A stretch of DNA of 64,000 bases from Candidatus Aenigmatarchaeota archaeon (GCA_039000685.1 JAWBNW010000001.1:14655-78654); one strand, 5' to 3'; shown: positions 7,481 through 62,560, numbered from the stretch's first letter. A program made the numbers and translations. Notes: generated by a model not told the origin, from the sequence alone.

Positions 7481-7491
7481 AAGAAAAAAAG
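7481..7491 (-). terminator. Oligo-T tract (CTTTTTTTCTT on the minus strand) immediately after the pilin stop codon
   Basis: Archaeal intrinsic terminators are T-runs. Here T7 follows the TAG. Confidence 0.35.
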
Positions 7492-28482: not shown

Positions 28483-29922
28483 ATGTTTTTTATGCCAACT
28501 GTTTTGGTTGTCGACAGAGGAGGAAGAGGAAACGCGATTGCTTACTGCTTTGCCAAAAGTCCGAAAGTCTCGAAAGTTTTCGTGGCCCCAGGAAATGCAG
28601 GCAGTTCTTTGCTTGAAAAATGTCAACAAGTCCCAATTGAATCGATAGAAGAGATGATAGATTTTGTTGAAAAAAATAAAATTGATTTGACTTTTGTTGG
28701 ACCAGAAGGCTATTTATCAAAGGGGATAGTGAACAAATTTTTGGAGAGGGATTTGAGAATAGTTGGTCCAACTAAGGAAGCCACAATCTTGGAATCGAGC
28801 AAGTGTGACACGAAAATTTTTCTAAGTCAGATAGGGGTTCCAGTTCCAGAGTTCAAAATTTTTGGCGATCCTGAAGAAGCTAAAGCTTACGTGAGAGATT
28901 TTTACAAAAATAGGCCAGGAGAGAATGTTGTGGTTAAAGCAGACGGTCTTGCTGAAGGAAAAGGTTCTTTTGTCTGCAATTCTCTTGAGAATGCCGAATA
29001 TGCGATAGACTACATCATGGTTCAAAGAGCTTTTGGTGATTCTGGGAGAAGGGTTGTTATAGAAAAAAGGCTTTATGGTCAAGAGCTCATGTTCTTTGTT
29101 CTCACCGATGGCAAAACAGTTTTGCCGATTGAATCAGCTATGGACTACAAGGCAGCTTTCGATGATGATAACGATGCTAGAACAAAATATTTCGGTGGTT
29201 TGAACCCTAGAACAGGGGGGATGGGCGGCTACTCCCCACATCCTTGGCTTGATGAAGAACTAAAACAGAAGATCATGGAAAGGATAGCAATCCCGACAAT
29301 AAGAAAATTCAAAGAATTGAAAGGAATAGAGTACAAGGGGATAATGTATTTTGGTCTGATGATCTGTGAAGAAAATGGGGAGAAAAATCCTTATGTTCTA
29401 GAAATCAATGTTAGGATGGGAGATCCGGAAGCTCAAGTCATTTTGCCAAGACTGAAAACAGATTTTTATGATTTGTCAGAAGCGATAATAGAAGGTAAAC
29501 TTAATGAAATTACCTTAAGTTGGGATCCAGATTACTATTTGGGAATATGCGCAGTTAGTGGAAAAATACTCAGACCACTTTTTGAGTCTGGTAGAGGGGA
29601 AGAATATGATGAAAGAAAGAACATAGGTTATCCCGGTCCCCATATAACAAATCAACCAATTTTTGGTCTGAGAAAAGTAGACCCAAGCTGTTTAATTTTC
29701 CACAATGGGACAGCATTTAAACCAAGAGATCCAAAAGACCCAAGCAGCATAGACCCAAGCAAAAAAGATGAAGATGGCAATATAGTGACGACAGGAGGAA
29801 GGGTCTTGACATTAGTTGCAAAAGGAAAAACTTTGGAAGAGGCAAGAGAAAAAGCTTACTCTGAAATCGAAAAAATATTTTTCTCAGGAATGAGGTACAG
29901 AAGGGATATAGGTAAAACTTAA
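28483..29922 (+). CDS. purD: Phosphoribosylamine--glycine ligase
   Basis: VLVVDRGGRGNAIAYCFAKSPKVSKVFVAPGNAG; ATP-grasp core. Confidence 0.85.
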   Translation: MFFMPTVLVVDRGGRGNAIAYCFAKSPKVSKVFVAPGNAGSSLLEKCQQVPIESIEEMIDFVEKNKIDLTFVGPEGYLSKGIVNKFLERDLRIVGPTKEATILESSKCDTKIFLSQIGVPVPEFKIFGDPEEAKAYVRDFYKNRPGENVVVKADGLAEGKGSFVCNSLENAEYAIDYIMVQRAFGDSGRRVVIEKRLYGQELMFFVLTDGKTVLPIESAMDYKAAFDDDNDARTKYFGGLNPRTGGMGGYSPHPWLDEELKQKIMERIAIPTIRKFKELKGIEYKGIMYFGLMICEENGEKNPYVLEINVRMGDPEAQVILPRLKTDFYDLSEAIIEGKLNEITLSWDPDYYLGICAVSGKILRPLFESGRGEEYDERKNIGYPGPHITNQPIFGLRKVDPSCLIFHNGTAFKPRDPKDPSSIDPSKKDEDGNIVTTGGRVLTLVAKGKTLEEAREKAYSEIEKIFFSGMRYRRDIGKT

Positions 29923-31352
29923 GATTCTATCTCATAATATCTTTTCACGGTCGATTGTGTCTTTAATTTATCTGCTAGAGATTGTGCGATTGGTGTGGTA
30001 TATCTTCCAGTCAAGCAGGCCGTACAAAGCTCTTCTTCTTTGAAACCGATAGCATCCACAAGACCTTCAATTGTTTGATAGCAAAGCTTATCCACGTTGA
30101 TTTTTTTGGCAATTTCTTCCACAGTGTGATTTGCTGCGATGAGTTCTGTGTGAGTCGCCATGTCAATCCCATAGAAACATGGAGAAATGATGGGAGGGCA
30201 AGTTATCCAGAGCTCAACTTTTTTAGCCCCAGCTTTTCTCACTATGTCTACAATTTTTCTGGAAGTAGTTCCCCTCACAATGCTATCATCAACCAAGAGC
30301 ACTTTCTTATCTTTTATCACTGATTTTATCGGGTTTAGTTTGAATTTCATAGCACCGTCTCTTGCTTTTTGTGCTGGCATGATGAATGTTCTCCAGATGT
30401 ATCTATTCTTGATTAAACCTTCTGCAACCGCCAGACCAGTTTCTTTACCAACGCCTTCAGCTGCTGGTCTTGAAGTATCTGGAACTGGTATAACAACATC
30501 AGCATCTGTTTGATAGGTTTTTGCCAAATTTTCCCCCAATTTTATTCTAACATCATAAACAGATTTCCCCTCAAGAACACTATCAGGGCGAGAAAAATAA
30601 ACATACTCAAACATGCAGTGAGCTCTTTTTTTACACGGAAAAATTTGTTTTCTTTCAGCACTATCTTCTTTCACGATTATCATTTCACCAGGCTTTACAT
30701 CTGAAAAATTTTCAATGTTATTTATGTCAAGGGCAACACTCTCAGAAGCAAATGCTTTTGAATTTTCATCTTCACCAAAAACAAGAGGTTTGAAGCCAAA
30801 CGGATCCCTGAAAGCCACGAGCTCACAATCTCCGCTCAAGAACACTGCCGAATAAGAGCCTTCTATTTTATTCATACAATTCAAAATAGCGTTTTCTAGA
30901 TCATTTTTTCTTATCAGTTCTTCTGCCAAAAGATGAGTTAAAACTTCAGCATCACTTCCTGATTGAATCAATCTCCCATTCTGCACAAGCTCCCTTCTCA
31001 AATCAATTATGTTTACGATGTTTCCGTTGAAGCAAAAGGAAATTCCACGCTTAGGGTAGTTTATCACGAAGGGCTGGGCATTTTCCAGTGTGGATGTGGA
31101 CATGGTTGAATATCTAACATGTCCTATTCCTATTTTTCCTTTCAACTCAGCAACTATTCTTTCCTTGAAAGAATCTGTGACAAGCCCCATGGCCCTTTTC
31201 AAGTGAATTTTTGAATCTTCTAGTGTTGATATTCCTGCTGATTCTTGTCCTCTGTGTTGCAAAGCCACAAGACCATAATAAATCCTCCTTGCCACATCTT
31301 CAGAAGAATTGCAACCAAACACGCCACAAGCTTCTTTCAAAGGGCAACACAT
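29919..31352 (-). CDS. purF: Amidophosphoribosyltransferase
   Basis: N-terminal propeptide then CGVFG (Ntn nucleophile Cys). PRTase motif VLLVDDSIVRGTT. Confidence 0.85.
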   Translation of the reverse strand: MCCPLKEACGVFGCNSSEDVARRIYYGLVALQHRGQESAGISTLEDSKIHLKRAMGLVTDSFKERIVAELKGKIGIGHVRYSTMSTSTLENAQPFVINYPKRGISFCFNGNIVNIIDLRRELVQNGRLIQSGSDAEVLTHLLAEELIRKNDLENAILNCMNKIEGSYSAVFLSGDCELVAFRDPFGFKPLVFGEDENSKAFASESVALDINNIENFSDVKPGEMIIVKEDSAERKQIFPCKKRAHCMFEYVYFSRPDSVLEGKSVYDVRIKLGENLAKTYQTDADVVIPVPDTSRPAAEGVGKETGLAVAEGLIKNRYIWRTFIMPAQKARDGAMKFKLNPIKSVIKDKKVLLVDDSIVRGTTSRKIVDIVRKAGAKKVELWITCPPIISPCFYGIDMATHTELIAANHTVEEIAKKINVDKLCYQTIEGLVDAIGFKEEELCTACLTGRYTTPIAQSLADKLKTQSTVKRYYEIES

Positions 31353-31913: not shown

Positions 31914-34900
31914 ATGGTCAAACAAGCTACACCAAAAGAACAGGAAGAAAGGATAATGCAATTCTGGAAGAAAAATAAAGTCTACGAGAAGGTTAAAGCT
32001 CAAAGGAAAAAGGCAAGGAAATTTTATTTCTTAGATGGCCCACCTTATGCTACCGGCAGCATTCATGTAGGCACTGCAATGAACAAGGTGATAAAAGATT
32101 GTTACTTGAGATTTTTCAGAATGTTTGGCTTCAATGTTTGGGACCAACCAGGCTATGATACACATGGCGTGCCGATAGAAAACAAAATAGAAAAGGAGCT
32201 CGGCTTCAAGAGCAAGAAAGATATAGAGAATTTTGGTGTTGCTAAGTTCATTCAAAAATGTAGGGAATTTGCCACAAAATATATAGGTGTGATGGGAAAA
32301 CAGTTCGAAAACCTTGGGGTTTGGATGAATTGGAATAATCCTTACTTAACTTTGGCAAACGACTACATAGAAGGAGCTTGGTTTACCTTCAAGAAAGCTT
32401 TTGAGAAAGGTTTTTTATACAAGGGAAATTATCCGGTTCATGTTTGTCCAAGATGTGTGACAAAAGATTCTTTAGTTTTTACTAATTATAGTTGGAAAAG
32501 TATGGATAAATTAAAAAATTGTTGGAAAAATGAAAAAGTTATGGCATTAAATCTTAAAAATTTTGATTTGTTACCATCACACATAAATGGATATCTAGAA
32601 ACAAAAGATATGGTTTTGAAGGTCGAAACCCAAAGTGGATTAAGTATCGAAGCAACTTTAGATCACCCGTTTTTAACTAAAGAAGGTTGGAAAGAGCTTA
32701 GAGATTTGAAGGTAGGTGAGAAGGTTGGAGTAATTCATCTCCCAGTTTTTATTGAAGAGTGTAATTCAAATAAAATAATTCTAACAAAAAAAGAAATTAT
32801 AAATACAATCAAAAATTTGAATAGGAGATATGGAAATTCTAAAAGAATAGACAAAGTTATAAATAGAGTTTTACAGGAGCTTGATGGTAAAAACCTTTTA
32901 CCTTTATTTGAGAAAGATGAAAAAAATGAAATTCTTTTCCGAATTTTGGGTTACTTGTTTGGGGACGGTTCGGTGATTATAAGAAAGAAGAAAGGTAGAG
33001 ATTTCCCAGAGATTGTAGTATTCTTTTCAGCCAAATCCAAAGAAGATCTTAAAAAGATTAAAAAAGACTTGAAAAAGTTAGGGTTCAAGTCGAGTAATAT
33101 AAAAAGTAGAGAAAGAAAGTCCTTGATAAATAACAAAGAAGTGAAAGGACAAGATAACGAAATGTACTGCTATTCTTCTTCGTTTGGAATTTTACTTATA
33201 GCTTTAGGCATGCCATGCGGGAAAAAATATGAAATTGGTTTTGATATCCCTAGAATATTAAAGAAAGTAAAATCTAAAATTATTAAGGTAGAATTCTTAC
33301 GTGGCTATTTCGGCGCTGAGTTAAGTAAACCAAGTTTAAGAGAAACAGGAAAATACTTCAAGGAATTAATTTTCAGAGTAGAAAAAAATAGAAATTTAGA
33401 GATTTCTGCCACAAAATTTGTAAAATCTATTTATGGATTGCTCAGAGAATTTGACATAAAAACGAGACCTATAACAAAGAAATATAAAAATGTTAATGGA
33501 AAAGAAAAAGTTGTAGTTACAGGAAGAATAAGTTGCAGAATCTCAAATATTGTAAAATTCTTGGAAACTATAGGGTACGTTTATTGTAAAGAAAGGGAAG
33601 TGCTATCGTCTCACGTGCTTTCTTATTTAAAGACAAAAATCAGAAAAAAGTTGAGTAGAGAAGGCTTACCGAAATTTAACACTTATGTAAAAAATAATAG
33701 AATTAAAAATGGTTTAATTTGGGAAAAGATAGAAAAAATAGAACACACTGGTATAAAAGAAGTAGCAGATGTAAATGTCGGAAGGAACCATAACTTTATC
33801 GTGAACGGGTTTGTTACACACAATTGTGAAACGGTGGTGGCTTATAATGAGATAGAATACGTGAAAATTAAAGATCCTGGCATATATGTTAAGTTTAGGA
33901 CAAAAAAAAGTCCTAACACTTTTTTGGTCTGTTTTACAACCACTCCATGGACTTTGCCTGCGAATACCGGTATAATGGCAAAGCCAGATGCAGAATATGC
34001 TTTTGTTCAAGTTGACAATGAAGTTCTAATCTTGGCCAAGCAACTCCTAGAAGAAGTGATGAAAAAAGTTGGGATAAAAGATTACAAGATCTTGGAGACA
34101 AAGTTGGGAAGGGAACTCGAGAATTTAAAGTATGAACATCCTTTTGCCGATGAGTTTAAATTCCAACAAGTTTTAACAAATGCTCACCGTGTAGTCCTTT
34201 CAGACCAATTTGTAAGCTTGGAAGAAGGTACAGGCTTGGTTCACACGGCTCCAGGCCATGGAGAAGAAGATTATAAAGTCGGTTTGGAGACAGGATTACC
34301 AGCTATTTCTCCTGTAAAAATTGATGGAACTTTTGATGAAAGTTGCGGAAAATATGCAGGCATGTTTGTTAAAGATGCCGATAAGCTAATATTGCAAGAG
34401 CTGAGGGCAAAAGGTTTGCTACTTCATGAAGAAACTATTGAGCATGATTATCCAATTTGTTGGCGTTGCAACACTCCTTTACTCCAAATTTCAGTACCTC
34501 AATGGTTTTTCAGAGTTACTGCAATTAGAAACAAACTGATAGAAGAAAATAAAAAGATAAAATGGAATCCAAGCTGGGCAAGTCAAAGATTTCAAAACTG
34601 GCTTGAAAGCTTGGGAGACTGGCCAATTTCTAGACAAAGATATTGGGGAATTCCTTTGCCTATATGGGTTTGTGAAAAATGTGAAAACATTAAAGTCATC
34701 GGATCAAGAGAAGAATTACCAAGAATACCGAAAGACTTCCACAGGCCTTACATAGATGAAATAATTCTTGAATGCAAATGTGGTGGCAAGATGAAAAGAA
34801 TTCCAGATGTGCTTGATGTTTGGTTTGACTCAGGAGTTGCTTCTTGGGCTTCTTTAGGTTTCCCAAGGGAGAAAAAACTTTTCAAGAAGCTTTGGCCCGC

Positions 34901-36164
34901 TGATTTCATCCTTGAAGGCTCTGATCAGTTTCGTGGCTGGTGGAATTCTTTGATGATAACAAGCATGATGACTTTTGATAAAGCTCCTTTCAAAAGTGTC
35001 TTGATGCACGGTTTGGTTTTGGATGCCCATGGTCAGAAGATGTCAAAAAGTTTGCAGAATATTGTAAGCACGGAAGAAGTGATAGAAAAATACGGGAGAG
35101 ATTTGCTTAGATTTTATTACCTTTCGAACGAGCCTTGGAATGACTCTTACTTCAGTTGGCAAACTATGGAAGAAATAGCAAAATCTTTTGTTGTAGTAAG
35201 AAATACTTTCAATTTCGTCAAAACTTATGTTTATTCTCCAGGGAAACCAAAGGGCTTAAAGCAGGAAGACAAATGGATTCTATCTAGGTTAAATTCTTTA
35301 GTAGAAAGTTGCACAAAGCATTTTCAAGATCACAATGCCCACAAAGCTGCAAATGAAATTTTGGACTTCGTCTTGAACGATTTCTCAAGATGGTACATCA
35401 AGCTGATAAGGGATAGAACATGGCCTTTGTATGACGGCAAGGATAAACAAGCAGCTTTCTTTACTTGTTTAACTGTAACTGAAACTATAGCAAAACTTTT
35501 GGCTCCAGTTTGTCCTTTCTTGGCAGAGCAAGTTTATCAAGAAATTGTTAAGCATTTGAAAAAAGGCAAAATCTCGGTTCACATGGAAGATTGGCCAAAG
35601 ACTGATAAGAAAATGATAAACAAAAATTTAGAGGAAGAGATGAAAGTTGCCAAGCAGATTGTGGAAGCTTGCAGTGCAGCAAGACAAAAAGCAAATTTGA
35701 AGCTAAGATGGCCAATCGATTCAGTTCTTATTACCACAAAAGACAAGAGAGTTTTAGCTTCTTTGAAAGATTTGAAAGAAGTTTTGCTCAAAATGTGTAA
35801 TGCAAAATCAATAAAGCTAGCAAAAGAAGAACCAAAAGGTGAATTTTCTGTAGCAGAATTTAGCTTAGGAAAAATTTTCATTCCATCTAAGCTTGATGAA
35901 AAGCTTTTGGACGAAGCTCTCTTGAGAGAAATTGTCAGGAAGATTCAGGAAATGAGAAAGAAATTTGGTTTTGTTGTTGCGGAAAGAATTGTTTTGAGCT
36001 TAAGCTCTGATGAAAAAACTAACAAGCTTTTGGAGAAGAACAAAAAAATGATAGAAAAAGAAGTTGGGGCTAAATCTGTGGTAGTAGGAAAAACAAAAGG
36101 AAGATTTTCAGAAACTCTCGAGTTTGAAGACAAAAAAATAAACATAGCTTTCAGCAAAGCTTAA
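31914..36164 (+). CDS. ileS: Isoleucyl-tRNA synthetase interrupted by a 457-aa intein
   Basis: HIGH-type motif PYATGSIHVGTAMN. KMSKS. Editing domain. The WCxRC|ET extein junction is split: ...VHVCPR / intein / CETVVAY. Extein is about 959 aa. Confidence 0.9.
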   Translation: MVKQATPKEQEERIMQFWKKNKVYEKVKAQRKKARKFYFLDGPPYATGSIHVGTAMNKVIKDCYLRFFRMFGFNVWDQPGYDTHGVPIENKIEKELGFKSKKDIENFGVAKFIQKCREFATKYIGVMGKQFENLGVWMNWNNPYLTLANDYIEGAWFTFKKAFEKGFLYKGNYPVHVCPRCVTKDSLVFTNYSWKSMDKLKNCWKNEKVMALNLKNFDLLPSHINGYLETKDMVLKVETQSGLSIEATLDHPFLTKEGWKELRDLKVGEKVGVIHLPVFIEECNSNKIILTKKEIINTIKNLNRRYGNSKRIDKVINRVLQELDGKNLLPLFEKDEKNEILFRILGYLFGDGSVIIRKKKGRDFPEIVVFFSAKSKEDLKKIKKDLKKLGFKSSNIKSRERKSLINNKEVKGQDNEMYCYSSSFGILLIALGMPCGKKYEIGFDIPRILKKVKSKIIKVEFLRGYFGAELSKPSLRETGKYFKELIFRVEKNRNLEISATKFVKSIYGLLREFDIKTRPITKKYKNVNGKEKVVVTGRISCRISNIVKFLETIGYVYCKEREVLSSHVLSYLKTKIRKKLSREGLPKFNTYVKNNRIKNGLIWEKIEKIEHTGIKEVADVNVGRNHNFIVNGFVTHNCETVVAYNEIEYVKIKDPGIYVKFRTKKSPNTFLVCFTTTPWTLPANTGIMAKPDAEYAFVQVDNEVLILAKQLLEEVMKKVGIKDYKILETKLGRELENLKYEHPFADEFKFQQVLTNAHRVVLSDQFVSLEEGTGLVHTAPGHGEEDYKVGLETGLPAISPVKIDGTFDESCGKYAGMFVKDADKLILQELRAKGLLLHEETIEHDYPICWRCNTPLLQISVPQWFFRVTAIRNKLIEENKKIKWNPSWASQRFQNWLESLGDWPISRQRYWGIPLPIWVCEKCENIKVIGSREELPRIPKDFHRPYIDEIILECKCGGKMKRIPDVLDVWFDSGVASWASLGFPREKKLFKKLWPADFILEGSDQFRGWWNSLMITSMMTFDKAPFKSVLMHGLVLDAHGQKMSKSLQNIVSTEEVIEKYGRDLLRFYYLSNEPWNDSYFSWQTMEEIAKSFVVVRNTFNFVKTYVYSPGKPKGLKQEDKWILSRLNSLVESCTKHFQDHNAHKAANEILDFVLNDFSRWYIKLIRDRTWPLYDGKDKQAAFFTCLTVTETIAKLLAPVCPFLAEQVYQEIVKHLKKGKISVHMEDWPKTDKKMINKNLEEEMKVAKQIVEACSAARQKANLKLRWPIDSVLITTKDKRVLASLKDLKEVLLKMCNAKSIKLAKEEPKGEFSVAEFSLGKIFIPSKLDEKLLDEALLREIVRKIQEMRKKFGFVVAERIVLSLSSDEKTNKLLEKNKKMIEKEVGAKSVVVGKTKGRFSETLEFEDKKINIAFSKA
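32454..33824 (+). other. Intein with LAGLIDADG homing endonuclease domain inside ileS
   Basis: Starts CVTKDSLVFT (block A) and ends FVTHN followed by +1 Cys. Two LAGLIDADG motifs LGYLFGDGSV and LRGYFGAELS. Removal restores the conserved CPRCET motif. Confidence 0.8.
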
Positions 36165-46686: not shown

Positions 46687-46801
46687 GAATAACCTCCTCG
46701 ATAAATTGTAATATAGAGAAAGAGAGCTTTAAGCTTACAGGAGAAGTCGCTCACCCATCTCGCTCACTAAATTATTTTTAAGAAAGAAAGAATAAAAAGC
46801 T

Positions 46802-48037
46802 TTAGGCTACAATGCTCTTCAATACACGATAAATAGATTCTGGTATGTTTGCGCTTAAGTTATGTGTATTGTTACGAAAGTCCGGTCTTGTGTTGAATTC
46901 ATTTGCATATGGAGTGCATTTGTCCAAATGTTCTAATATAAGTGATTGAGCCTCTAAATATTCTGGTAGGGATTTGAATTCTGCGTATATTTGGTCATGT
47001 TCTCTCAAGGTTTTGTTAAATTCACCTTCAGTGCATCTATTTTCCAATCTTTTTTCCAATGCAACTTTAACTTTTGTTTTGACTGGTTCTATTTTCTCGG
47101 TTTTGAACTTACTAAGCTTTTTTATTCCTTCATATATTTTTTTTCTTTCCTCACCATCCTCACATACAGGAATTATATCAATCCCTCCATACAATGCGTC
47201 TATATTAAATCCCCGAGATCTCGTGAAATTAACAAGTGCATTTATACACTCAACAGCAATTTTCTCATATTTGGGAGGTGTGGGTATTCCTATAGGAATC
47301 GCTCCTAAAGCTGTATTTTTAGCAATTATCTCATCACTACTTACAACACGAGCCAAACAACCAATAACAACTGGAGATTTACCCTTCTCTTTTTCTAAAG
47401 ATATTCTTAAGTCAAGAGCATGTGGTTTGAATTCCTCCGCATATACACCATACGGATTGCTTAGACATGGAAAGAGGGCTTCATTTATTTTTCCACGATC
47501 TTTATAATTTTGAAAGGCTGTGACACAAGTCCTTAGGAAGTCTTTTTCACTTTCGATATAAAAAATAGCTTTACCTCTACTTCCTTCCGTAGGCTTTATA
47601 ACAGCCTTCTTCCATTCTTGAAAGATCAATTTCGAAATTTTTTCTGCAGCATTTCTGTTTAACGAAAATCGATCACCATACTTTTTAATCGGAAAATCTT
47701 GAATTAAAATACTATCTATAGTAGGTATTCTATATCTTCTAAAGATATCTTTTAGTCTCGGTTTTGAGTTAGAAAAATATTCAACTCCATATGGATTTAT
47801 AACAAGTATATCAGCCTTTTCAAAATTTTCTGTGCTATTTTCCCTAAAATTTTTACTCGTGGCTCTATTAACTATAGCTTCTATACCGTACGAATTAATC
47901 AAACTGCGGGTTTCTTCAGGTGATTTGAATGAGAAATTTTTTAAATCAATAAACTGAATTTCTACTTTTTTACTTAGTTCTTCTAGTAGTGAAAACTCAT
48001 CCAATAATATTTCATCACTTGCTAGCCCAATTTTCAT
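46802..48037 (-). CDS. ATP-grasp family ligase (RimK/LysX-like core with N-terminal extension)
   Basis: AVIKPTEGSRGKAIFYIESEKD is an ATP-grasp B-loop pattern. 411 aa. Native AT-rich composition. Confidence 0.45.
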   Translation of the reverse strand: MKIGLASDEILLDEFSLLEELSKKVEIQFIDLKNFSFKSPEETRSLINSYGIEAIVNRATSKNFRENSTENFEKADILVINPYGVEYFSNSKPRLKDIFRRYRIPTIDSILIQDFPIKKYGDRFSLNRNAAEKISKLIFQEWKKAVIKPTEGSRGKAIFYIESEKDFLRTCVTAFQNYKDRGKINEALFPCLSNPYGVYAEEFKPHALDLRISLEKEKGKSPVVIGCLARVVSSDEIIAKNTALGAIPIGIPTPPKYEKIAVECINALVNFTRSRGFNIDALYGGIDIIPVCEDGEERKKIYEGIKKLSKFKTEKIEPVKTKVKVALEKRLENRCTEGEFNKTLREHDQIYAEFKSLPEYLEAQSLILEHLDKCTPYANEFNTRPDFRNNTHNLSANIPESIYRVLKSIVA

Positions 48038-48090
48038 AATTAGTTAAAAAATAACAAAGTTTTAAATCCTTAACTATAAGGATTAAAAAT

Positions 48091-49545
48091 ATGGTAAAGA
48101 ATGAAATAAGGCTAGAAAGAATCAACGACACAACTTTAAGAGAAGGGGAACAAACACCAGGCGTTCTATTTAAAAGAGAGGAAAGAACAAAAATAGCGGA
48201 AATGTTATCAGATGCTATAGGTAGAAAGTTATTCCTGGAAATTGGTTTTGCGTATAATGAGCTTTTTGCTTCTGGTGTGGCATCTACGATTAAAACCCTG
48301 GGAGAAAGTGGTAGAAAAGTTAAGACATTATTACATGCTAGATGCAGAAGAGAAGATATTGATGTTAGCTATAAATGCGGATCTTGGGGAGTAATAGTTT
48401 ATCTCCCACTTTCTGATGAGCAACTTAAGTTTAAATTGGGTAAATCATATGAATGGGCCTTAGCACAGATAAAAGACGTCATAAGTTATGCAAAGGAGAA
48501 TGTAGGATTTGAATGTGTTGAATATACGCTTGAGGATATGACTGCAGTACCTAGAGACAGAGCTATAGAAGGTGCTAAGACTGCTTTAGAAGCCGGTGCA
48601 GATGTCATAAGGTTGGCAGACACTGCGGCCAGATTTGGTCCAGATGAGTTTGGTGAGGCTGTGAGGAAAATTGTAGAAGCATTGCCAGAAGGAACACAAA
48701 TTGATGTACATTGCCATAATGATAGAGGCTTAGCATTAGCTAATGCTATAGCAGGGCTTAAAGCCGGGGCGACAGGTGTTCATACAACTGTGTTAGGAAT
48801 TGGTGAGAGATGTGGCATTCCTGACCTTATAACTTTAATCGAGAACCTTGAGAGCTTGTACAACATAGAGACTGGTGTGAAGCATGAATTAATTCCTCCT
48901 ATTTATTACTATGTTTCCGCTTGTACAGGAATACCAATACCAAAGAATCATCCAATTATAGGAATTTATGCTAGAACACATAAGGCTGGCACACATCAAG
49001 TCACAGTCTTAAGACAGTTAAAAGAAACAGGGGAAGCAACAACTTATGAGACAATTAATTTCAGCAAGTGGGGGTTGGACAGAGAATTTGAGTTTGGTCC
49101 TATGCAATCAGAAGAACTCACAAAACATTATTTGGAAAGATACGGTCTAGACACGAGTAACTCAAAAGAGATTACAGAGAGAATAAGAAAATATTCTATG
49201 GAAAGAGGAAGGCCGTTGGTTTTGAGAGAATTTAGAGAAATTGTTAAAGAAATAACAGGAAAGGAAATTTTAGTTCCAGCAGGCGAGGAAATGATGATAG
49301 CAATTGTAGGCATGAAGGTAGAGATAGGGGCAGACGAAGTTTCAATGATAAGAGAAATAAATAAAGTATGTTTAAAATACGGTGCTACTAATGAAATTTA
49401 TGAAGTAACGGGTAGTTTTGATTATATATTACATCTCAACAACATCAGAGATATGAATGAAATGAATTCCCTAACCAATGAAATAAGAAAAATAAAAGGA
49501 GTCAGCAGCACGGAGACACATATAGTTTTGGACTATTTCAGGTAG
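48091..49545 (+). CDS. Homocitrate/2-isopropylmalate synthase family (DRE-TIM, HMGL-like) with C-terminal RAM (AsnC/Lrp-type) regulatory domain
   Basis: DTTLREGEQ, HCHNDRGLA and LGIGERCGI catalytic motifs. C-terminal roughly 80 aa ...EVTGSFDYILHLNNIRDMNEMNSLTNEIRKIKGVSSTETHIVL matches the RAM domain. GC-enriched centre. Confidence 0.7.
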   Translation: MVKNEIRLERINDTTLREGEQTPGVLFKREERTKIAEMLSDAIGRKLFLEIGFAYNELFASGVASTIKTLGESGRKVKTLLHARCRREDIDVSYKCGSWGVIVYLPLSDEQLKFKLGKSYEWALAQIKDVISYAKENVGFECVEYTLEDMTAVPRDRAIEGAKTALEAGADVIRLADTAARFGPDEFGEAVRKIVEALPEGTQIDVHCHNDRGLALANAIAGLKAGATGVHTTVLGIGERCGIPDLITLIENLESLYNIETGVKHELIPPIYYYVSACTGIPIPKNHPIIGIYARTHKAGTHQVTVLRQLKETGEATTYETINFSKWGLDREFEFGPMQSEELTKHYLERYGLDTSNSKEITERIRKYSMERGRPLVLREFREIVKEITGKEILVPAGEEMMIAIVGMKVEIGADEVSMIREINKVCLKYGATNEIYEVTGSFDYILHLNNIRDMNEMNSLTNEIRKIKGVSSTETHIVLDYFR

Positions 49546-50373
49546 TCTTCAATTTTTCTATTATTCGATTTGTAAATTCATCAGTACTCATTTGGACGAA
49601 ATTCATGTTTTCATCAATTTTCCCATTTTTATAACTTTCTTTTAAGACCTCATCTGTAATTTCCTCTAGTTTTCTTCCTTTTTCATCCCATCCAAAAGAA
49701 TACAACATCAGACTTAAAGCTCTAATAGCTCCTGAGGGTTAACTCTTTTTGTTTGCCCTCTTTCTATTAAATCGTCTGCCGTGCCATGTACGGGCTCAAA
49801 AATATTTGCTTTTTCACCTATGGCAGCACTCCCCACTGACCAAGGGGGTACAGGTGAAATCGAGGAAGCTAAATCTCCTTGAGAGTTTTCCAACACGATA
49901 ACTTTTTCATTTAAAGTTGCAGGATTTTGTGCGATTTTGTGGAAGCAATCATCCACATTTATTTTTTCTTTTGGAACTAAAGGATAATTTTTTCCAACTT
50001 CATCAAATATTTCATTCCAAAAACCGTCTCCCATTTTTATGACAGTTGGTTTGGAAGCACAAATAACACCAAGCTTATTTCTTTCAGCATACTCGAAGGC
50101 TTTTGAGAAGAAACTTTCCAATTGTTTTCTAGAAAATACTCTTTCTGTGATAACAATTTCATCATCATTAATTTCTATTCTTTCTTTTCCGGAATACAGC
50201 CCTTCTCTACCTTGTCTAAAAATAATAAAATTGTAAGATTCTTTTGACCAAGGAAGACTTTTTATCGGTCTTATGATAGCATTTACTTGGGCAACATCTT
50301 TCATGTAAACTACAGCACTTTTTGACATGTCTTTTGTGTTTATCGGGCCTTTGAATATATTTCTATTTCCATC
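49538..50373 (-). pseudogene. 3-isopropylmalate/homoisocitrate dehydrogenase-like pseudogene, N-terminally truncated and frameshifted near 49730
   Basis: The track ORF 49714..50328 matches the IMDH core. It ends FEPVHGTADDL...NPQELLEL*. The next frame continues GAIARALSLMLYSFGWDEKGRKLEEITDEVLKESY...FTNRIIEKLKTT*, the IMDH C-terminus. The N-terminal GDGIGPE region is absent because the HEN-like ORF occupies that position. Confidence 0.6.
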
Positions 50374-50402
50374 TCAAGATTTTCTATATTGTTCGTGATT
50401 AC

Positions 50403-50900
50403 TTGATTAGACTTAGAACGAAAACATTACCGTTTAATGAATCGTTTGCACGAGAGCTAAAAAGAATTGGTATATCTTCTAAAACTGTATATATTTCAGA
50501 GCGTGGACAATGGAATACATATGTATGTTCCGTCGAGTTTGCTAAATGGTTAAAAAGCCTCTCACTTAAAAATATCGAAGAAATTGTAACGCGAAATAAA
50601 AAGAGTACAATTGCATTCATTAGGGGATTCTACGAAAGTGAAGGTAGCGCAAAAAAGTGGTATAATGTTGTTTATGTTTCAATGGTGAATTCAAAGAGAG
50701 AGTTGATCGAATTGTTAAATAGACTCATAACTACTTTTGGTTTTAAAACAACTATACGTAAGAGATTTGATAAGAGGTATGGTTCTTACATCTACGAACT
50801 TCATATTTTAGGTAGTAGCAAAGAAAAACTTAAATTCCTGGGCTTGATTAACCCATGTATTAAAGCCAACCCAAAGCAATATCCGCTTAAAAATTCTTGA
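50403..50900 (+). CDS. Truncated LAGLIDADG homing-endonuclease-like ORF (free-standing)
   Basis: IAFIRGFYESEGSA (LAGLIDADG-type motif) followed by ...FGFKTTIRKRFDKRYGSYIYELHILGSSKEKLKFLGLI, typical of an HEN domain. The N-terminal part looks like the tail of a first HEN domain. Confidence 0.45.
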   Translation: MIRLRTKTLPFNESFARELKRIGISSKTVYISERGQWNTYVCSVEFAKWLKSLSLKNIEEIVTRNKKSTIAFIRGFYESEGSAKKWYNVVYVSMVNSKRELIELLNRLITTFGFKTTIRKRFDKRYGSYIYELHILGSSKEKLKFLGLINPCIKANPKQYPLKNS

Positions 50901-50912
50901 TATAGATCTTTT

Positions 50913-53900
50913 TTACCTTCTTTGCAAAAGTTGTCTAATTTTTTCAACACACTCAGGATTCATTAAAGTTGTAATATCACCAAGGTCTTCACTTTTCAGT
51001 AATCTTTTTAATACACGTCTGAGAATTTTCCCGCTTCTTGTTTTAGGCAAATCTTGCACATAAACAATCTTTGCAGGCTTTGCTATTGGCCCAATTCTCT
51101 TGGCCACAAGCTCTACCAGCTCAGAAGAAAGCTTTTCACTTGCTTCAAAACCTGCTTTCAAAACAACAAAAGCTATAGGAACTTCACCTTTAATTTCATC
51201 AGGCAATCCAACGACTGCTGACTCAACAACAGCTTCATGTAAGTTCAAAACATCTTCAATTTCAGCATTCGATAAGCGATGACCAGCAACTTTAAGCACA
51301 TCATCTATCCTTCCTGTAATTCTAATCAAACCATTTTCATCCTTCAAAGCTCCGTCTCCTGCGAGGTAAATTTCCTTTCCATACTTGCTGAAGTAAGCTT
51401 CCTCATATTTTTCATGATTTTTGTAAATTCCTCTAAACATACCAGGAGAAAAAGGAGGCAATATAACAAGATTTCCTATTTGGTTCGTTTGACAAGGCTT
51501 TCCTTCTTCATTCAGTATATCAACTTTTACCCCAGGAAAAGGCAAACCAACATGAGCCGGCTTGAAAGGTCCAACTCCTGGCAAAGAAGTTATCAATATG
51601 CCGCCAGTCTCAGTTTGCCACCAAGTGTCAACTATCAAACATCTCTTCTTTCCAATATTCTCAAAATACCATTTCCAAGCACCTTCATCTATTACTTCAC
51701 CAACCGAGCCCAAAAGTCTCAAACTTTTGAACTTATACTTCTTTACAGCTTCTCCACTCAATTTTTCAAACATTCTAATTGCAGTAGGCGCCGTGTAGAA
51801 AATTGTCACCTTATATTTTTCAATTATTTGGGCCCATCTATCTGGGCTTGGAAAATCTAAAGAGCCTTCAAAAATGAGAAAAGTAATACCATTCAACAAA
51901 TTAGCGTAACAATTGTAGGTGTGAGAAGTAATCCAACCTATATCTGCAGTACAATTATGAACTACTAGATTGTTTAAAGTATATGAATTATGCTTAGTTT
52001 TTAAATTCCAAACTAAGCCTTCATAATAAGAAATTTCTTTTTTATTTATCGGAAAGAAAATCAGGTTGGTGGTAATTATTGCCCTCTGCCAACTATAAGT
52101 TTCTTTGGGTTCTTTTAAATTAAATTGAGAATAAAATTTTTGAGCACTTTTACCTGTGATGGCCAATTCATAACTATCTTGGCCACTTTGAATTTTATAC
52201 CCTTCTTGCCTTTTTCTTGTTTTTTCTGCCGGTAAATAAGTAATTGAAGTAACTATACCAAGTTTATTAAGAATCAATTTTATTTGATAAGCTAGTGTAC
52301 GGGAAGCGGTTGTAATTCTTACTCTCCTCCTTCTTCTTAAATCGGTGTTACCATCTCCCAACCAATAACCTTTAATAAATTCCCATAGAAGATCTTTCTC
52401 CAGCGTTAATATCCAATGAGGGAGATGTTTTTCGTAGCTACGATGACCAAAAAGTTTGGAAAAAAATTCAGCCAAGATTACAGAATTTGCACGCGTTTCC
52501 CAACATCCTTTATATTTTAACACTCGAGCTCTTATTCCAAATATTTTTTTAAATAAATTTGCGCTATCTTTGGCAAGCCTCTTTTCTTTCTCTGAAAAGG
52601 TAAGCTGGAGCGTATCTTGAGCAATGCTCCCTTCAGCAATATAATAACCGACAAGTCTTAAAAAGTTGTTATCAATTTTGATCTCATCTTTTATTTTTCC
52701 CTTTTCACCTTTTTTAGGAAGAATGTAGTTATCTTTAGTTTTTCTGTTTTTGACAATGTCCGAGATTTTAATTGTTTTCTTTTTCCATTCCTTAGCTATC
52801 CTTGGAAAAGCAACATAATCCCCAACTTTTAAATCTTTAGCTCTAACCCATTCAGTTATTATAGGCATTCTTTTTTTGAGGACTAAAACTTTATGGTTTG
52901 GAGTCAACTCCACTGGAAGGTTAGTGTAAGAAGTGAATAATCTCACAAGCCCTCCTTTATATTCTCGGACAAAAATCTTTTCAACAGGCATAAATCTTCC
53001 TCGATGGGTAAGAACTTTTTCCCCGATTTTTATATCTTGAATTTCTTTAACTCCAGGATTTGTAACAACTAAACTTCCAGAAGGCACACACCAAAAAACA
53101 TCATCATCATGCCAGTCAAAAATCCATTTTCCAGTCCAATAAGCTTGAACAGTATAACCACCACAGACGTGCATGCAGGGTTTTGGGATACCAGTGCTAC
53201 CACTTGTTGACAAAATAAATAAAACATCTTCTGAATCCATTATTTCAGCTTCACACTCTTCGCTCTCTTTTTCTACAAGCTCGTGCCACCAAAAATCTTG
53301 TCCAGGGTTCCAAGCAATTTGATTCCCAATTCTTTTCACCACAATAATCTTTTTCACACTTGTTTCTTTTACACCCTCATCAGCATTTTCCTTCAAATTT
53401 ATAATTTTCCCCCTTCTGTAGTAGCCGTCAGCTGTTATCAGAAGTTTTGCCTGAGTTATTTGAAGCCTTATTCTTAAAGCCTGAGGAGAGAATGCAGAAA
53501 AAATAACAGTATGAATAGCCCCAATTCTAGCACAAGCAAGCATAGAAATTATGGCTTCTGGAATCATCGGTAAGTAAATTCCAACCACATCTCCCCTCTT
53601 GATCCCAAGCTTTTTCAGAGCATTTGCTGCTTTGTTAACTTGTTTGAAAAGCTCTTCATAAGTTAAAATTCTTGGTTTCTCTTCAACTGGTTCAGGCTCC
53701 CAAATTATAGCCGGTTTGCTCTTGATCTTCTCCCAGTTGATCCTTTTCTCAAAAATGTTTGAAGTTATGTTTATTTTTCCACCCAAAAACCATTTGAAGT
53801 AAGGCGGTGAATGCTCAAAAGCTTTCTCCCACCTCTTGAACCAAAAGAGCTTATCAGCCAAATCTTCCCAAAATTTCACAGGATCTTTATCTGCTTCTTC

Positions 53901-54005
53901 ATAAATTTTCTTGTCGCTAACCCATGCTTTATTCTTCATCTTCCTCGAAGGCCAATAAAGTTCACCTTTCTTTTCAACCCAAGAATTCCCAAAACCAAAA
54001 ATCAT
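50913..54005 (-). CDS. acs: Acetyl-CoA synthetase (AMP-forming) interrupted by a 379-aa intein
   Basis: LSTSGSTGIPKPCMHVCGGY (A3 motif). Extein junction ...DVFW / intein / CTADIGWITSHTY. Extein is 651 aa. Confidence 0.85.
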   Translation of the reverse strand: MIFGFGNSWVEKKGELYWPSRKMKNKAWVSDKKIYEEADKDPVKFWEDLADKLFWFKRWEKAFEHSPPYFKWFLGGKINITSNIFEKRINWEKIKSKPAIIWEPEPVEEKPRILTYEELFKQVNKAANALKKLGIKRGDVVGIYLPMIPEAIISMLACARIGAIHTVIFSAFSPQALRIRLQITQAKLLITADGYYRRGKIINLKENADEGVKETSVKKIIVVKRIGNQIAWNPGQDFWWHELVEKESEECEAEIMDSEDVLFILSTSGSTGIPKPCMHVCGGYTVQAYWTGKWIFDWHDDDVFWCVPSGSLVVTNPGVKEIQDIKIGEKVLTHRGRFMPVEKIFVREYKGGLVRLFTSYTNLPVELTPNHKVLVLKKRMPIITEWVRAKDLKVGDYVAFPRIAKEWKKKTIKISDIVKNRKTKDNYILPKKGEKGKIKDEIKIDNNFLRLVGYYIAEGSIAQDTLQLTFSEKEKRLAKDSANLFKKIFGIRARVLKYKGCWETRANSVILAEFFSKLFGHRSYEKHLPHWILTLEKDLLWEFIKGYWLGDGNTDLRRRRRVRITTASRTLAYQIKLILNKLGIVTSITYLPAEKTRKRQEGYKIQSGQDSYELAITGKSAQKFYSQFNLKEPKETYSWQRAIITTNLIFFPINKKEISYYEGLVWNLKTKHNSYTLNNLVVHNCTADIGWITSHTYNCYANLLNGITFLIFEGSLDFPSPDRWAQIIEKYKVTIFYTAPTAIRMFEKLSGEAVKKYKFKSLRLLGSVGEVIDEGAWKWYFENIGKKRCLIVDTWWQTETGGILITSLPGVGPFKPAHVGLPFPGVKVDILNEEGKPCQTNQIGNLVILPPFSPGMFRGIYKNHEKYEEAYFSKYGKEIYLAGDGALKDENGLIRITGRIDDVLKVAGHRLSNAEIEDVLNLHEAVVESAVVGLPDEIKGEVPIAFVVLKAGFEASEKLSSELVELVAKRIGPIAKPAKIVYVQDLPKTRSGKILRRVLKRLLKSEDLGDITTLMNPECVEKIRQLLQRR
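51954..53090 (-). other. Intein with LAGLIDADG homing endonuclease domain inside acs
   Basis: Starts CVPSGSLVVT and ends LVVHN with +1 Cys. LAGLIDADG motifs LRLVGYYIAEGSI and IKGYWLGDGNTD. Removal restores the conserved YWCTADIGW motif. Confidence 0.8.
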
Positions 54006-60078: not shown

Positions 60079-61731
60079 TCACAATATAAAGCTCAAATCA
60101 ATCTCAAAAGCTGCTATTGGCATTTCCAACTTCCAATTCTCAAGAACAGAAGGGTGAATTTCGCCAATTATTCCAATAGCCTTGCCTTTAACCAAAATTT
60201 CTGCGGTTCTTCCTTCGATGAAGCTGGGATGCTTGCTCTCTCTTAACTTGTATTTTGCTCCAACCAAAGACATGAAAGCATCCAGAACAGCAACAATATC
60301 ATCATAGCTTACTCTAGAATCAGCAATTGCTACAACAAGCTTCCTCACATCTCTTGTTCTAGTTTCTTGCTTCTCATCAATCAAAACAACATCTCCAACT
60401 TCAAATATTTTTTGTGGATATTCAACATGTTGGTTATTTGCAAAAAATTCCATCAAGCTTGGCAATAGCCAATTCCTGAAAACACTCCAGTTTTCCGAGA
60501 CAATATTCTCTATTTCAGCTACTCTTTCTTCTTTCAAATTCATCTTCTTGAACAAATTCTCTTTGCTTGTTAAAGTGTAAGATAAAATCTCTTGAAAACC
60601 TAAGCTAACCATGAGCTCTTCAACTTTTTCAGTTTTCACTTCAATTTCACTAAGTTTCCCTTCAACTTTCATCTTCAAAGGTTCAGGCTTGATCTTGTTG
60701 TAGCCGTAAGAAATTATCACATCTTCAACCACATCTCTCTGATGCATTATGTCATTGCGATAAGCAGGGTAAAGCAATTCAATTTTTTTGCCTTTCTTCA
60801 AAATCTTGTAGTTTGCTTTCTCAAGCAATTTGCAAATTTCTCCCAAGCTTAAGTCAAGACCAGAAATTTTTCTCACGTAGCTTACATCAACAAAAGTCTT
60901 CTTCGGCTTGAAATCTGGTGTGATTATAGTTTTGCTAGGATAAACAACTTTCACAGAGCAAATTTCTCCACCTCGATCGGCCATAGCCGTTACCATCACA
61001 TTCAAAGCAGGCATCAAAAACTTTAAGTTAAAACCACTGCACTCAATGAAAACATTCTTTGTTTCTTCAGTAACTTTTCCACTATACTCTGAGTTTATGA
61101 TTGGTGGCAAGGACAAGACTTCATTTCTTGCATCGATGAAAATAGGATATTCTTTCTTTCCAGCAAGCAAATGTCCAAACTCTTTTCCTTTTGGATGCTT
61201 TTCCAAAATTTCCCTTGGTGTCAAAGCTTCCTTGAAATCAAGCGGAATGAACTTGATTCCATCAGGCTTTACTGTTGTAAATCTTATTGGTGGCTTAATC
61301 TTATCATAATCATAAACCCCAATTGCAACTTCTTTCCTGTTTCTTCCCAAGCTTCCAGCAATTTTTTCTTGAAGCTGAATCATTTGGGAGAGAAAAGCTG
61401 GAGTAACTTTTAAGTTTTTCACAACAGCACAAACTGTGTAAGGCCTAACTTTTGAAACTTTTTTATCAACTTCAACAACAACTTCTGAGCTCTTGACTTC
61501 ATATTCAGGAAAAATTGGCTCGAAAGCCCTACTTCTTATTTCTCTTGCTATTCCTTCTGAGCTCCATAAGTCTGGCCTGTTTGTGTCTTTTGCTTCAATT
61601 TTCAGATTGTCTCCTTCCACAGCCTCTATTTCACACTTTGCAAAATTTACAAGTTCTTTCAATTCTTCTATTTCAATTTTTCTTCCGATCAATTCACACA
61701 AATCTTGATAAGAAGCTTCTATGGTTGGCAT
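60079..61731 (-). CDS. pheT: Phenylalanyl-tRNA synthetase beta subunit (archaeal)
   Basis: MPTIEASYQDLCELIGRK N-terminus. B3/B4 and B5 domains. 550 aa. Confidence 0.85.
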   Translation of the reverse strand: MPTIEASYQDLCELIGRKIEIEELKELVNFAKCEIEAVEGDNLKIEAKDTNRPDLWSSEGIAREIRSRAFEPIFPEYEVKSSEVVVEVDKKVSKVRPYTVCAVVKNLKVTPAFLSQMIQLQEKIAGSLGRNRKEVAIGVYDYDKIKPPIRFTTVKPDGIKFIPLDFKEALTPREILEKHPKGKEFGHLLAGKKEYPIFIDARNEVLSLPPIINSEYSGKVTEETKNVFIECSGFNLKFLMPALNVMVTAMADRGGEICSVKVVYPSKTIITPDFKPKKTFVDVSYVRKISGLDLSLGEICKLLEKANYKILKKGKKIELLYPAYRNDIMHQRDVVEDVIISYGYNKIKPEPLKMKVEGKLSEIEVKTEKVEELMVSLGFQEILSYTLTSKENLFKKMNLKEERVAEIENIVSENWSVFRNWLLPSLMEFFANNQHVEYPQKIFEVGDVVLIDEKQETRTRDVRKLVVAIADSRVSYDDIVAVLDAFMSLVGAKYKLRESKHPSFIEGRTAEILVKGKAIGIIGEIHPSVLENWKLEMPIAAFEIDLSFIL

Positions 61732-62560
61732 TCAAATCCTCCTCAACCAATTCAACTTTCTTTTTTGAAATATATTTCCCACAATTTGGACAGATATAGC
61801 GTGGATATTTTTTATCTTTATATTTCCAAAATCCACATTTCCAAATTTTTTCATATCCACAATATGGGCAAGGAATTTCAATAGATGAGGCTCGTTTAAA
61901 GAAAGATTCTAACTCAATTATCTTTTGTATTTTATTTTGTTTTTCTTTATGTTTACTCAAAGGCAATAAAATTTTTGCTAATCTTATCACATCCTTTATG
62001 CGCATTAACATGACTCTATATAAATCGAAATTACAAACCCCTATGCCTGTGTAAGTACCTCTTTTTCTTACTAAATAAAAATGTGATTTAAATCCAAGTT
62101 CTTTTAATTTCTTATGAATTTGTTCTAAAATGGTTTTGTCACAAGTTCCTAAACTAAATACTAAGTCCTTATATTTTCCATTATATTTTTTGTGTTTGGT
62201 TATTATCCAACTACCTTCACTATCTACATATCCTGCTAAAAAAGAATAAAATAATTCTTCCTTATTTAATATCCATTCTGGAATGTACGTGGGTTTATTT
62301 ACTAAGAACTCAAAACTACTGTTCAAAGAACAATAAGCTCTAGTAGTTTTTTCTGTTGCACCACCTTTTTTCTCATACCACGAAACCTTTCCATAGCTTG
62401 AGAATACATTTTGAAACATCTCTATTTGTACAGGCTTAGAAGATGTTACCTCCACAATAACACGATTAGAATCTTTCCTCGCATATATATCACCAGCCCT
62501 TAAACCTAAAAGATAAGCTTTTTCTTCATCTGAAAGCAAAGGTATAGACAATTCGTTCAT
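61694..62560 (-). mobile_element. Free-standing LAGLIDADG homing endonuclease with C-terminal C4 zinc ribbon, inserted between pheS and pheT
   Basis: LAGLIDADG motifs LLGLRAGDIYAR and FLAGYVDSEGSW. C-terminal CPYCG...CPNCG ribbon. The 3' end overlaps the pheT start by 38 nt. It lies 10 nt downstream of pheS. Confidence 0.7.

Follow-up and report, generated by a model that had tools for sequence, protein, structure and literature searches.

Why would an archaeon carry what looks like part of a lysine or leucine pathway, when a genomic survey of its phylum (PMC8407114) found de novo amino-acid biosynthesis to be absent and gene transfers from TACK archaea to be numerous? The question is raised by a 64,000-nucleotide (nt) stretch of DNA from Candidatus Aenigmatarchaeota archaeon (GCA_039000685.1 JAWBNW010000001.1:14655-78654), the whole of which we call the window, and in particular by positions 46802-50373, which hold four open reading frames (ORFs) of 411 (- strand), 484 (+), 204 (-), and 56 (-) amino acids (aa). 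A reading made from the sequence alone (hereafter, the sequence-only reading) had described here an ATP-grasp ligase, a synthase fused to a RAM domain, and a damaged dehydrogenase as a biosynthetic cluster caught mid-decay. The three adjacent genes are indeed present, with dehydrogenase homology running on to about 50390. Our results suggest that the locus is probably the relic of an archaeal LysW-type alpha-aminoadipate cluster, which deletions and frameshifts that arose independently in sister lineages of a host-dependent archaeon are taking apart. Mid-decay was an apt description, given a comparison with a sister contig and the LysW cluster around a relative of the synthase, except that in the window genome only the dehydrogenase has decayed.

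The dehydrogenase, an isocitrate/homoisocitrate/isopropylmalate-type gene on the minus strand at 49538-~50390, is a true pseudogene, as established by nucleotide alignment to its ortholog on the sister contig, L021. Its 204-aa ORF (49714-50328, -) spans positions 98-291 of the 348 in the Iso_dh profile (PF00180), and the protein continues, in a different frame, to its C-terminus in the 56-aa ORF (49538-49708, -). Relative to the L021 ortholog, one nucleotide has been deleted between 49735 and 49734, producing a frameshift, and a second between 50375 and 50374, producing a TGA, and the gene has lost its promoter along with its first 51 codons, among them those for the GDGVGP dinucleotide-binding motif. 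The N-terminal truncation and a frameshift at about 49730 had been noticed in the sequence-only reading, which missed the second deletion. When one base was inserted after 49735, the protein aligned unbroken through the junction to structures of isopropylmalate dehydrogenase (IPMDH) and homoisocitrate dehydrogenase (HICDH). The frame-restored protein has only two homologs among 5.8 billion proteins, one of which is full length and 95% identical (P0133, encoded on L021). The catalytic set of these enzymes comprises three Arg, a Tyr, a Lys, and three Asp (Thermus IPMDH numbering). The first substrate-binding Arg is replaced by Lys in the window dehydrogenase only, and the second metal-binding Asp of GDxxxD is Ser (GDLASS) in both the window copy and the intact L021 ortholog. 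Since the latter also scores far below every curated cut-off, including that for HICDH, this lineage was odd already before the gene was broken.

Could the breakage be an artefact of assembly or sequencing? The window derives from a metagenome-assembled genome, and one of the lesions follows a short CCC run. Yet independently assembled Logan contigs (SRR27730047) are 100% identical, without gaps, to window 46743-48503 and 48479-50567, and the second of these (L019) spans both 1-nt deletions as well as the truncation junction. There are, moreover, three separate lesions, among them a 51-codon truncation with unrelated DNA upstream. We regard an artefact as scarcely credible, and the frameshift first seen in the sequence as genuine. 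Programmed frameshifting was also considered and was rejected on account of the two frameshifts, the 5' truncation, and an ortholog that is in frame.

What did the broken gene once belong to? L021, a JGI contig of 31.6 kb, shares synteny with the window (80-96% nucleotide identity) and carries, in order, IOR alpha, IOR beta, acetyl-CoA synthetase (ACS), a dehydratase large subunit, its small subunit, the dehydrogenase, a synthase stub, a ligase stub, and LeuRS. Its dehydrogenase is intact (335 aa). The large subunit, a 401-aa member of the aconitase family, scores above the cut-offs for hacA_fam (455 bits vs 386) and for archaeal IPMI, and the small subunit (LeuD/HacB family; 7185-7662) is split by a +1 frameshift into ORFs of 87 and 81 aa; for both, LeuCD-type and HacAB-type subfamily models fit about as well as each other. 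A single extra T (ATTTTCTTATAG) appears to cause the split, and the rejoined parts exceed the LEUD_arch cut-off; either that genome's half of the cluster would be decaying as well, or a sequencing error would be responsible. The L021 synthase is reduced to a ~170-bp 3'-end stub with many indels and the ligase to a ~45-bp 3'-end stub, the product of a ~2.5-kb deletion that corresponds to window ~46850-49371 (the ligase and most of the synthase). In turn, the window lacks L021 5941-7811, the stretch with the two dehydratase genes and the start of the dehydrogenase (51 codons), and window 50391-50912 (522 bp) has no counterpart in L021. Because the two sisters retain complementary halves, their ancestor must have carried ligase, synthase, dehydrogenase, and dehydratase, that is, to judge from these predicted proteins, the first half of the alpha-aminoadipate route together with a ligase of LysX type. 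Since the cluster occupies the same position between LeuRS and ACS in a sister whose flanks show a synonymous divergence (dS) above 1, it predates the split from L021. Between window 36900-59800 and L021 1-18600, dS forms a mosaic, from ~0.08 in IOR-alpha and the dehydrogenase through 0.43 in ACS and 0.7 in AlaRS to 1.2-1.7 in LeuRS and a membrane protein, which suggests that the segment from IOR to the dehydrogenase may recently have passed by homologous exchange between otherwise well-separated lineages.

Where L021 has its dehydratase genes and the beginning of the dehydrogenase, the window has the remnant of a LAGLIDADG homing endonuclease (50403-50900, +), a 165-aa ORF with a TTG start. 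It contains a single domain (Pfam LAGLIDADG_3, 1.9e-13), and of I-DmoI it matches the second domain alone (residues 94-175); its truncated 5' end abuts the truncated dehydrogenase. No similarity was found between this remnant and the inteins or the other LAGLIDADG ORF of the window.

From these comparisons, the ancestral order (in window orientation) would have been LeuRS, ligase (-), RAM-synthase (+), dehydrogenase (-), homoaconitase-type small (-) and large (-) subunits, and ACS. If ancestral functions are assigned from family membership and from neighbours in relatives, the synthase of the complete pathway would have condensed acetyl-CoA with 2-oxoglutarate under control of an amino acid, probably lysine, through its RAM domain; the dehydratase and dehydrogenase would have taken the product to 2-oxoadipate; and the ATP-grasp enzyme would have joined an amino acid to a LysW-type carrier. 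The lesions of the window lineage are seen directly, and it is their order and the single deletion event that we infer: a homing-endonuclease gene would have been inserted between the dehydratase and ACS, one deletion would then have taken out the 5' end of the endonuclease, the genes for the two dehydratase subunits, and the dehydrogenase up to codon 51, and the two 1-nt deletions would have come after. The sister lineage, for its part, lost the ligase and synthase by deletion, and its small dehydratase subunit carries a frameshift. At the window locus the pathway breaks off beyond the first step, and the intact synthase and ligase are most likely recently orphaned, yet undecayed, genes.

Is the synthase of the kind that this reconstruction supposes? 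The gene (48091-49545, +; 484 aa) is intact and, by Pfam, NCBIfam, Protein Data Bank (PDB), and tree comparisons, encodes a homocitrate synthase (HCS)-like member of the LeuA/HMGL family. An NCBI protein on an 81.9-kb contig of a Ca. Aenigmatarchaeota metagenome-assembled genome matches it at 100% identity. The TIM barrel, which is catalytic (residues 11-268; HMGL-like, 7e-53), is followed by a post-HMGL subdomain (289-369; HCS_D2, 3e-5) and a C-terminal RAM/ACT-like domain (~402-481; window 49294-49533), in agreement with the fusion first proposed from the sequence. Residues 435-480 match AsnC_trans_reg/RAM (PF01037) at 2e-10 and 40.6 bits, above the gathering cut-off of 25, and residues 402-481 match the NCBIfam model for the lysine regulator LysM (9e-10). 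The sequence-only reading had ascribed RAM domains to some archaeal and Thermus homocitrate synthases. This is so for Sulfolobales, whose enzymes (~461 aa) carry PF01037, and is not supported for Thermus, whose solved HCS chains are 376-382 aa long, with an alignment that covers residues 10-306 only; to our knowledge, Thermus HCS has no RAM domain. Lysine reportedly exerts feedback on the Sulfolobus acidocaldarius HCS via its RAM domain, a finding attributed to Suzuki et al. in 2020.

The best PDB match of the synthase is the S. acidocaldarius HCS (6KTQ, 9e-49), ahead of the best isopropylmalate synthase (IPMS; 4e-35), and its LREGEQ motif is that of 6KTQ, the aligned IPMS 3RMJ having LRDGEQ. 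Its family-wide conserved residues are retained at 39 of 40 positions, with motifs at L16-Q21 (LREGEQ), H82, R84, E148, D149, and H207-x-H209. The exception, G180A, falls in the near-invariant DTxG motif, which is replaced throughout the window subclade (DTAAR in the window, DTSSR in the two closest relatives), and a private change, A150M, adjoins the catalytic Glu-Asp. In Thermus and Schizosaccharomyces pombe HCS, the distal carboxylate of 2-oxoglutarate is bound by His, Arg, and Ser. The equivalent of the substrate-binding His is present (H82), and the Arg of 'vRFtaED' in 6KTQ, which the synthase clade lacks, aligns to E145, at a position that is variable across the wider clade of the window synthase. 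Since E145 replaces the HCS Arg and DTAAR/DTSSR replaces DTxG, the enzyme may be called homocitrate-synthase-like, with 2-oxoglutarate as its putative substrate.

We placed the synthase in a neighbour-joining tree of its 120 best database matches and one extra sequence (377 columns, 50 bootstraps), a set without biochemically characterised IPMS, CimA, or AksA. The window synthase grouped with P0002 and P0003 (100% bootstrap), then with P0004 (94%), within a larger clade A (100%) that is mostly from Bathyarchaeia; it is no longer-branched than its sisters and shows no rate acceleration. Its two closest relatives, both uncultured, are 67% and 62% identical, and beyond this immediate clade the closest homologs, at 45-49% identity, belong to Bathyarchaeia and other TACK archaea. 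Clade A is separate from the Sulfolobales-type RAM-HCS clade (~32% identity to the window). The proposed link to lysine synthesis is favoured by the placement next to P0004. P0004, encoded on L009, is the nearest relative of the synthase with a resolved context, and that context, as predicted from its genes, is unmistakably a LysW cluster: ArgG, ArgH, an AsnC-type regulator, the synthase, a full-length Iso_dh, a long ATP-grasp protein, LysW, LysY, LysZ, and a LysJ-like aminotransferase. In L009 (6100-6310) and L010 (4400-4610), the Iso_dh has no ATG, GTG, or TTG upstream of GDGIG in the open frame and was called ~70 codons late (280 aa); it may use a non-canonical start codon.

The other contexts are more varied. 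Four Bathyarchaeia contigs (L001-L004, 7500-16100) have the synthase ortholog, with AsnC upstream, and a long ATP-grasp gene beside AdoMet_dc, His_biosynth-like, ATP-grasp_3 (MfnD-like), Hydantoinase_A (MfnF-like), AA_kinase (MfnE-like), and 4HFCP_synth (MfnB) genes, surroundings that resemble a methanofuran-biosynthesis locus. A role in the methanofuran side chain was considered and dropped, since the closer relative P0004 lies in a LysW cluster and the reconstructed ancestor has a dehydratase and a dehydrogenase. Ligase and synthase are paired in L005, with an AsnC gene; L007/8 has no long ATP-grasp, and L006 is too short to judge. Members of the ligase family also occur apart from the synthase: one adjoins canonical LysX, LysW, and AsnC (L016/L017), and two are isolated. 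Finally, a profile search of genome contigs with the ATP-grasp returned one locus only, in Ca. Methanomethylicia (L020, 6157-11290), where a 429-aa long ATP-grasp protein, 43% identical, is encoded ~1 kb downstream of Iso_dh and of the aconitase large and small subunits. This lineage is one of methyl-reducing methanogens, and the genes could equally serve 2-oxoacid elongation for coenzyme B.

Might the ancestral cluster, then, have served leucine synthesis (IPMS-LeuCD-LeuB) or coenzyme-B-like chain elongation (AksA/AksDE/AksF) rather than lysine? Such modules are built from the same three superfamilies of enzymes and share the reaction logic. The top NCBIfam match of the synthase is an IPMS subfamily model at 268 bits, with LysS_fung_arch (TIGR02146) marginally lower at 235 (234.8, its cut-off being 413.55); every LeuA-family model stays below its cut-off. 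The frame-restored dehydrogenase finds IPMDHs in the PDB (5e-28) before HICDH (7e-24), the L021 dehydratase fits LeuCD and HacAB models alike, and the Methanomethylicia ligase relative adjoins Iso_dh and aconitase genes. Against this, leucine and coenzyme-B modules have neither a RAM-fused synthase nor a LysX-like ligase, an enzyme of the LysX/ArgX fold having no role in either synthesis. The RAM domain of the window synthase is most like that of LysM, and the LeuA_dimer regulatory domain of IPMS is lacking. Its best solved relative is an HCS with the same LREGEQ, not LRDGEQ, and its nearest relative with a resolved context lies in a LysW cluster. We consider a leucine or coenzyme-B origin improbable.

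The ligase, which the sequence-only reading had likened to LysX and RimK, is encoded at 46802-48037 (-; 411 aa) and is intact. The resemblance holds at the level of fold. Its profile matches are weak: in Pfam, YheCD ATP-grasp (2e-7) and LysX_preATP_grasp (0.011), and in NCBIfam, rimK_fam (3e-10) and LysX_arch (1e-6), the curated cut-offs being missed both for LysX_arch (TIGR02144; 28 bits vs 275.6) and for rimK_fam (40.1 vs 143.4). The AlphaFold model (pLDDT 89, pTM 0.88) adopts an ATP-grasp fold with a LysX-type pre-ATP-grasp domain, and its top Foldseek matches in the PDB are ArgX (3VPB), LysX (3VPD), and the Thermococcus bifunctional LysX/ArgX (5K2M), with E values of 4e-15 to 4e-14, target-normalised TM scores of 0.71-0.83, and sequence identities of 13-18%. 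The ATP/Mg residues K148, E201, D287, E380, and N382 are invariant across the family, and the window ligase keeps all 34 of the 34 invariant columns in its 12-member alignment; its branch is not longer than those of sister sequences, with no rate acceleration. What sets it apart is a ~90-aa insertion of four helices (about residues 295-371) between the Mg-binding D287 and E380-x-N382, which is also found in the ligases of L009, L001, and L005 when these are aligned with a canonical 285-aa LysX. The family is very small: a word-indexed search gave 12 matches, and a profile search of 1.84 billion representatives gave 24 below 1e-30, with ~35 full-length. By these sequence criteria the window ligase is not a canonical LysX and is assigned to a rare long form.

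Several observations weigh against a cluster in decay. Synthase and ligase show no signs of it: their ORFs are intact, their catalytic and invariant residues are kept, and neither evolves at an accelerated rate. In L012/L013, from a more distant relative, the two genes form the same divergent pair, and none of the other pathway genes occurs within 10 kb (ligase 53% and synthase 42% identical to those of the window); this, with the pairing in L005, argues for selection on the pair itself. The curated NCBIfam cut-offs for HCS, LysX, and HICDH are all missed, and E145 and DTAAR/DTSSR make 2-oxoglutarate no more than a putative substrate of the synthase. The window dehydrogenase differs from its intact ortholog by 16 nonsynonymous and 14 synonymous changes (dS 0.087), and the ratio of nonsynonymous to synonymous divergence (dN/dS), 0.28, is not clearly neutral; as an average over both lineages, it leaves the timing of the loss of constraint unsettled.

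Some of these observations would be met by a different explanation, in which synthase and long ATP-grasp form a self-sufficient two-gene module under selection in several small archaeal genomes and the dehydrogenase and dehydratase are dispensable neighbours, decay being confined to these two. By analogy with the synthesis of beta-citrylglutamate by the RimK family, such a module would make a hydroxy-polycarboxylate (e.g., homocitrate) and ligate either this or an amino acid to an acceptor. In addition to the lone divergent pairs and to the AsnC-associated pair in L005, a clade-A synthase has a long ATP-grasp gene no more than two genes away in 5 of its 7 distinct contexts (the window, L001-4, L005, L009/10, and L012/13), and the ligase family is rare and, by its four-helix insertion, structurally distinct. 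The evidence on the other side is of four kinds. The sister genome has deleted both genes, and they are therefore dispensable in a very close relative; in L009, the best-resolved relative, the pair is embedded in a standard LysW cluster; the contigs with lone pairs are short, and other genes may sit elsewhere in those genomes; and since the dS of 0.087 implies a recent inactivation of the dehydrogenase, intact neighbouring ORFs are weak evidence of selection. We think such a module possible but rather unlikely, and we are doubtful also of the related idea that the pair is a free-standing two-enzyme system kept after the rest of lysine synthesis was lost. Were it true, a homocitrate-type acid or an amino acid would be ligated to a small molecule or to a protein C-terminus, an undescribed metabolite or modification in DPANN archaea.

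Was the relic cluster acquired from elsewhere? The sequence-only reading had called the synthase GC-enriched and the locus horizontally acquired or ancestral. The enrichment was not found: with a GC of 0.375, the synthase sits close to the mean of 44 window genes (0.365, sd 0.031; z = +0.33), its GC3 of 0.285 is likewise unexceptional (z = -0.77), and its codon usage is the 14th closest of the 44 to the pooled usage of the window. None of the three genes stands out from the window in GC, GC3, or codon usage, and these measures give no signal of recent transfer. A recently acquired, compositionally foreign GC-rich island draws some support from the closest homologs outside the immediate clade, which are Bathyarchaeia and other TACK archaea at 45-49% identity, transfers from TACK having been reported as frequent (PMC8407114). 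But identity to these homologs is below 50%, the composition is ordinary, and the cluster was in place before the sister genomes diverged; we hold such an island to be very improbable.

How does the relic compare with known systems? The LysW-type alpha-aminoadipate lysine clusters of Thermus, Sulfolobus, and Thermococcus comprise HCS, homoaconitase, HICDH, LysX, LysW, LysZ, LysY, LysJ, and LysK. The window shares with them the HCS-like synthase and the LysX/ArgX-fold ligase, and its sister L021 the HacA/HacB-type subunits and a beta-decarboxylating dehydrogenase. Unlike them, the window has no LysW, LysY, LysZ, LysJ, LysK, or dehydratase, and its dehydrogenase is broken; tblastn found no homologs of lysW, lysY, lysZ, LysJ-like, AsnC, or AcnL/AcnS genes in the 64 kb, and a six-frame motif scan of the same stretch found no LysW-like Zn-ribbon ORF with an acidic tail. 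Nor are the window genes one operon: ligase and synthase are divergent, and the synthase and dehydrogenase ORFs are convergent with overlapping 3' ends. The AT-rich region between ligase and synthase (53 bp; 48038-48090, by direct sequence reading) contains a TTTTAAAT element ~25-30 nt 5' of the synthase ATG and no gene for an AsnC/LysM-type regulator, unlike relatives L001, L005, L007, and L009, in which an AsnC-family gene lies directly upstream of the synthase.

Of the individual enzymes, the synthase has the HMGL barrel, post-HMGL subdomain, and RAM domain of S. acidocaldarius HCS in the same order and shares its LREGEQ and HxH, and differs from it in the Glu in place of the 'vRFtaED' Arg, DTAAR for DTVG, a 4-residue insertion in the RAM domain, and its separate clade (~32% identity to Sulfolobales HCS). 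The ligase has the pre-ATP-grasp domain and ATP/Mg residues of its top structural matches, the LysX/ArgX ligases (3VPD, 3VPB, and 5K2M), but is ~130 aa longer than the LysX of LysW-type clusters, with the four-helix insertion placed before E-x-N and with no lysW nearby. The decay itself resembles that in the reduced genomes of symbionts (DPANN archaea and insect endosymbionts), where frameshifts, truncations, and kilobase deletions likewise strike pathways that a host can supply. Unlike the usual erosion, here two sister lineages hold complementary halves and one breakpoint lies at a truncated homing-endonuclease gene.

It is still debated whether DPANN archaea inherited their minimal metabolism or came to it by loss. 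The locus gives direct evidence of loss in progress, in which the ancestral state and the individual destructive events (the 2.5-kb deletion, the deletion beside the homing-endonuclease remnant, and the single-base frameshifts) can be reconstructed. It also brings to light a clade of RAM-fused HCS-like synthases and a rare long LysX-like ligase, two enzyme variants that occur together and are as yet uncharacterised. Otherwise it represents ordinary gene decay in a known type of pathway and not a new kind of system. A literature search found no relevant paper on RAM-domain HCS, LysW in DPANN, or HCS in Aenigmarchaeota.

The window as a whole is DPANN-like: aminoacyl-tRNA synthetases are numerous and metabolic genes few, archaeal pilus genes are present, and IleRS and ACS contain inteins. 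Among the metabolic genes, PurD (GARS) and PurF (amidophosphoribosyltransferase) are intact at 28483-31352; the phylum has been described as mostly without de novo nucleotide synthesis (PMC8407114). Elements of homing-endonuclease type number four, including the truncated copy at 50403-50900. The window ACS (50913-54005, -; 1030 aa) contains an intein of ~379 aa with a LAGLIDADG domain (Pfam Intein_splicing and LAGLIDADG_3), and the L021 ACS (3985-5940; 651 aa, 90% identical) is intein-free, a presence/absence polymorphism between close relatives. IleRS (31914-36164, +; 1416 aa) also has an intein with a LAGLIDADG domain, and a free-standing 288-aa LAGLIDADG ORF (61694-62560, -) separates the genes for PheRS beta and alpha. 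Window and L021 diverge sharply in the final nine codons of ACS (KIRQLLQRR at window 50913-50940 and KLKEIIAMI at L021 5913-5940), the rest being ~90% identical, and this 3' end, which adjoins the endonuclease remnant, may have been remodelled by insertion or deletion.

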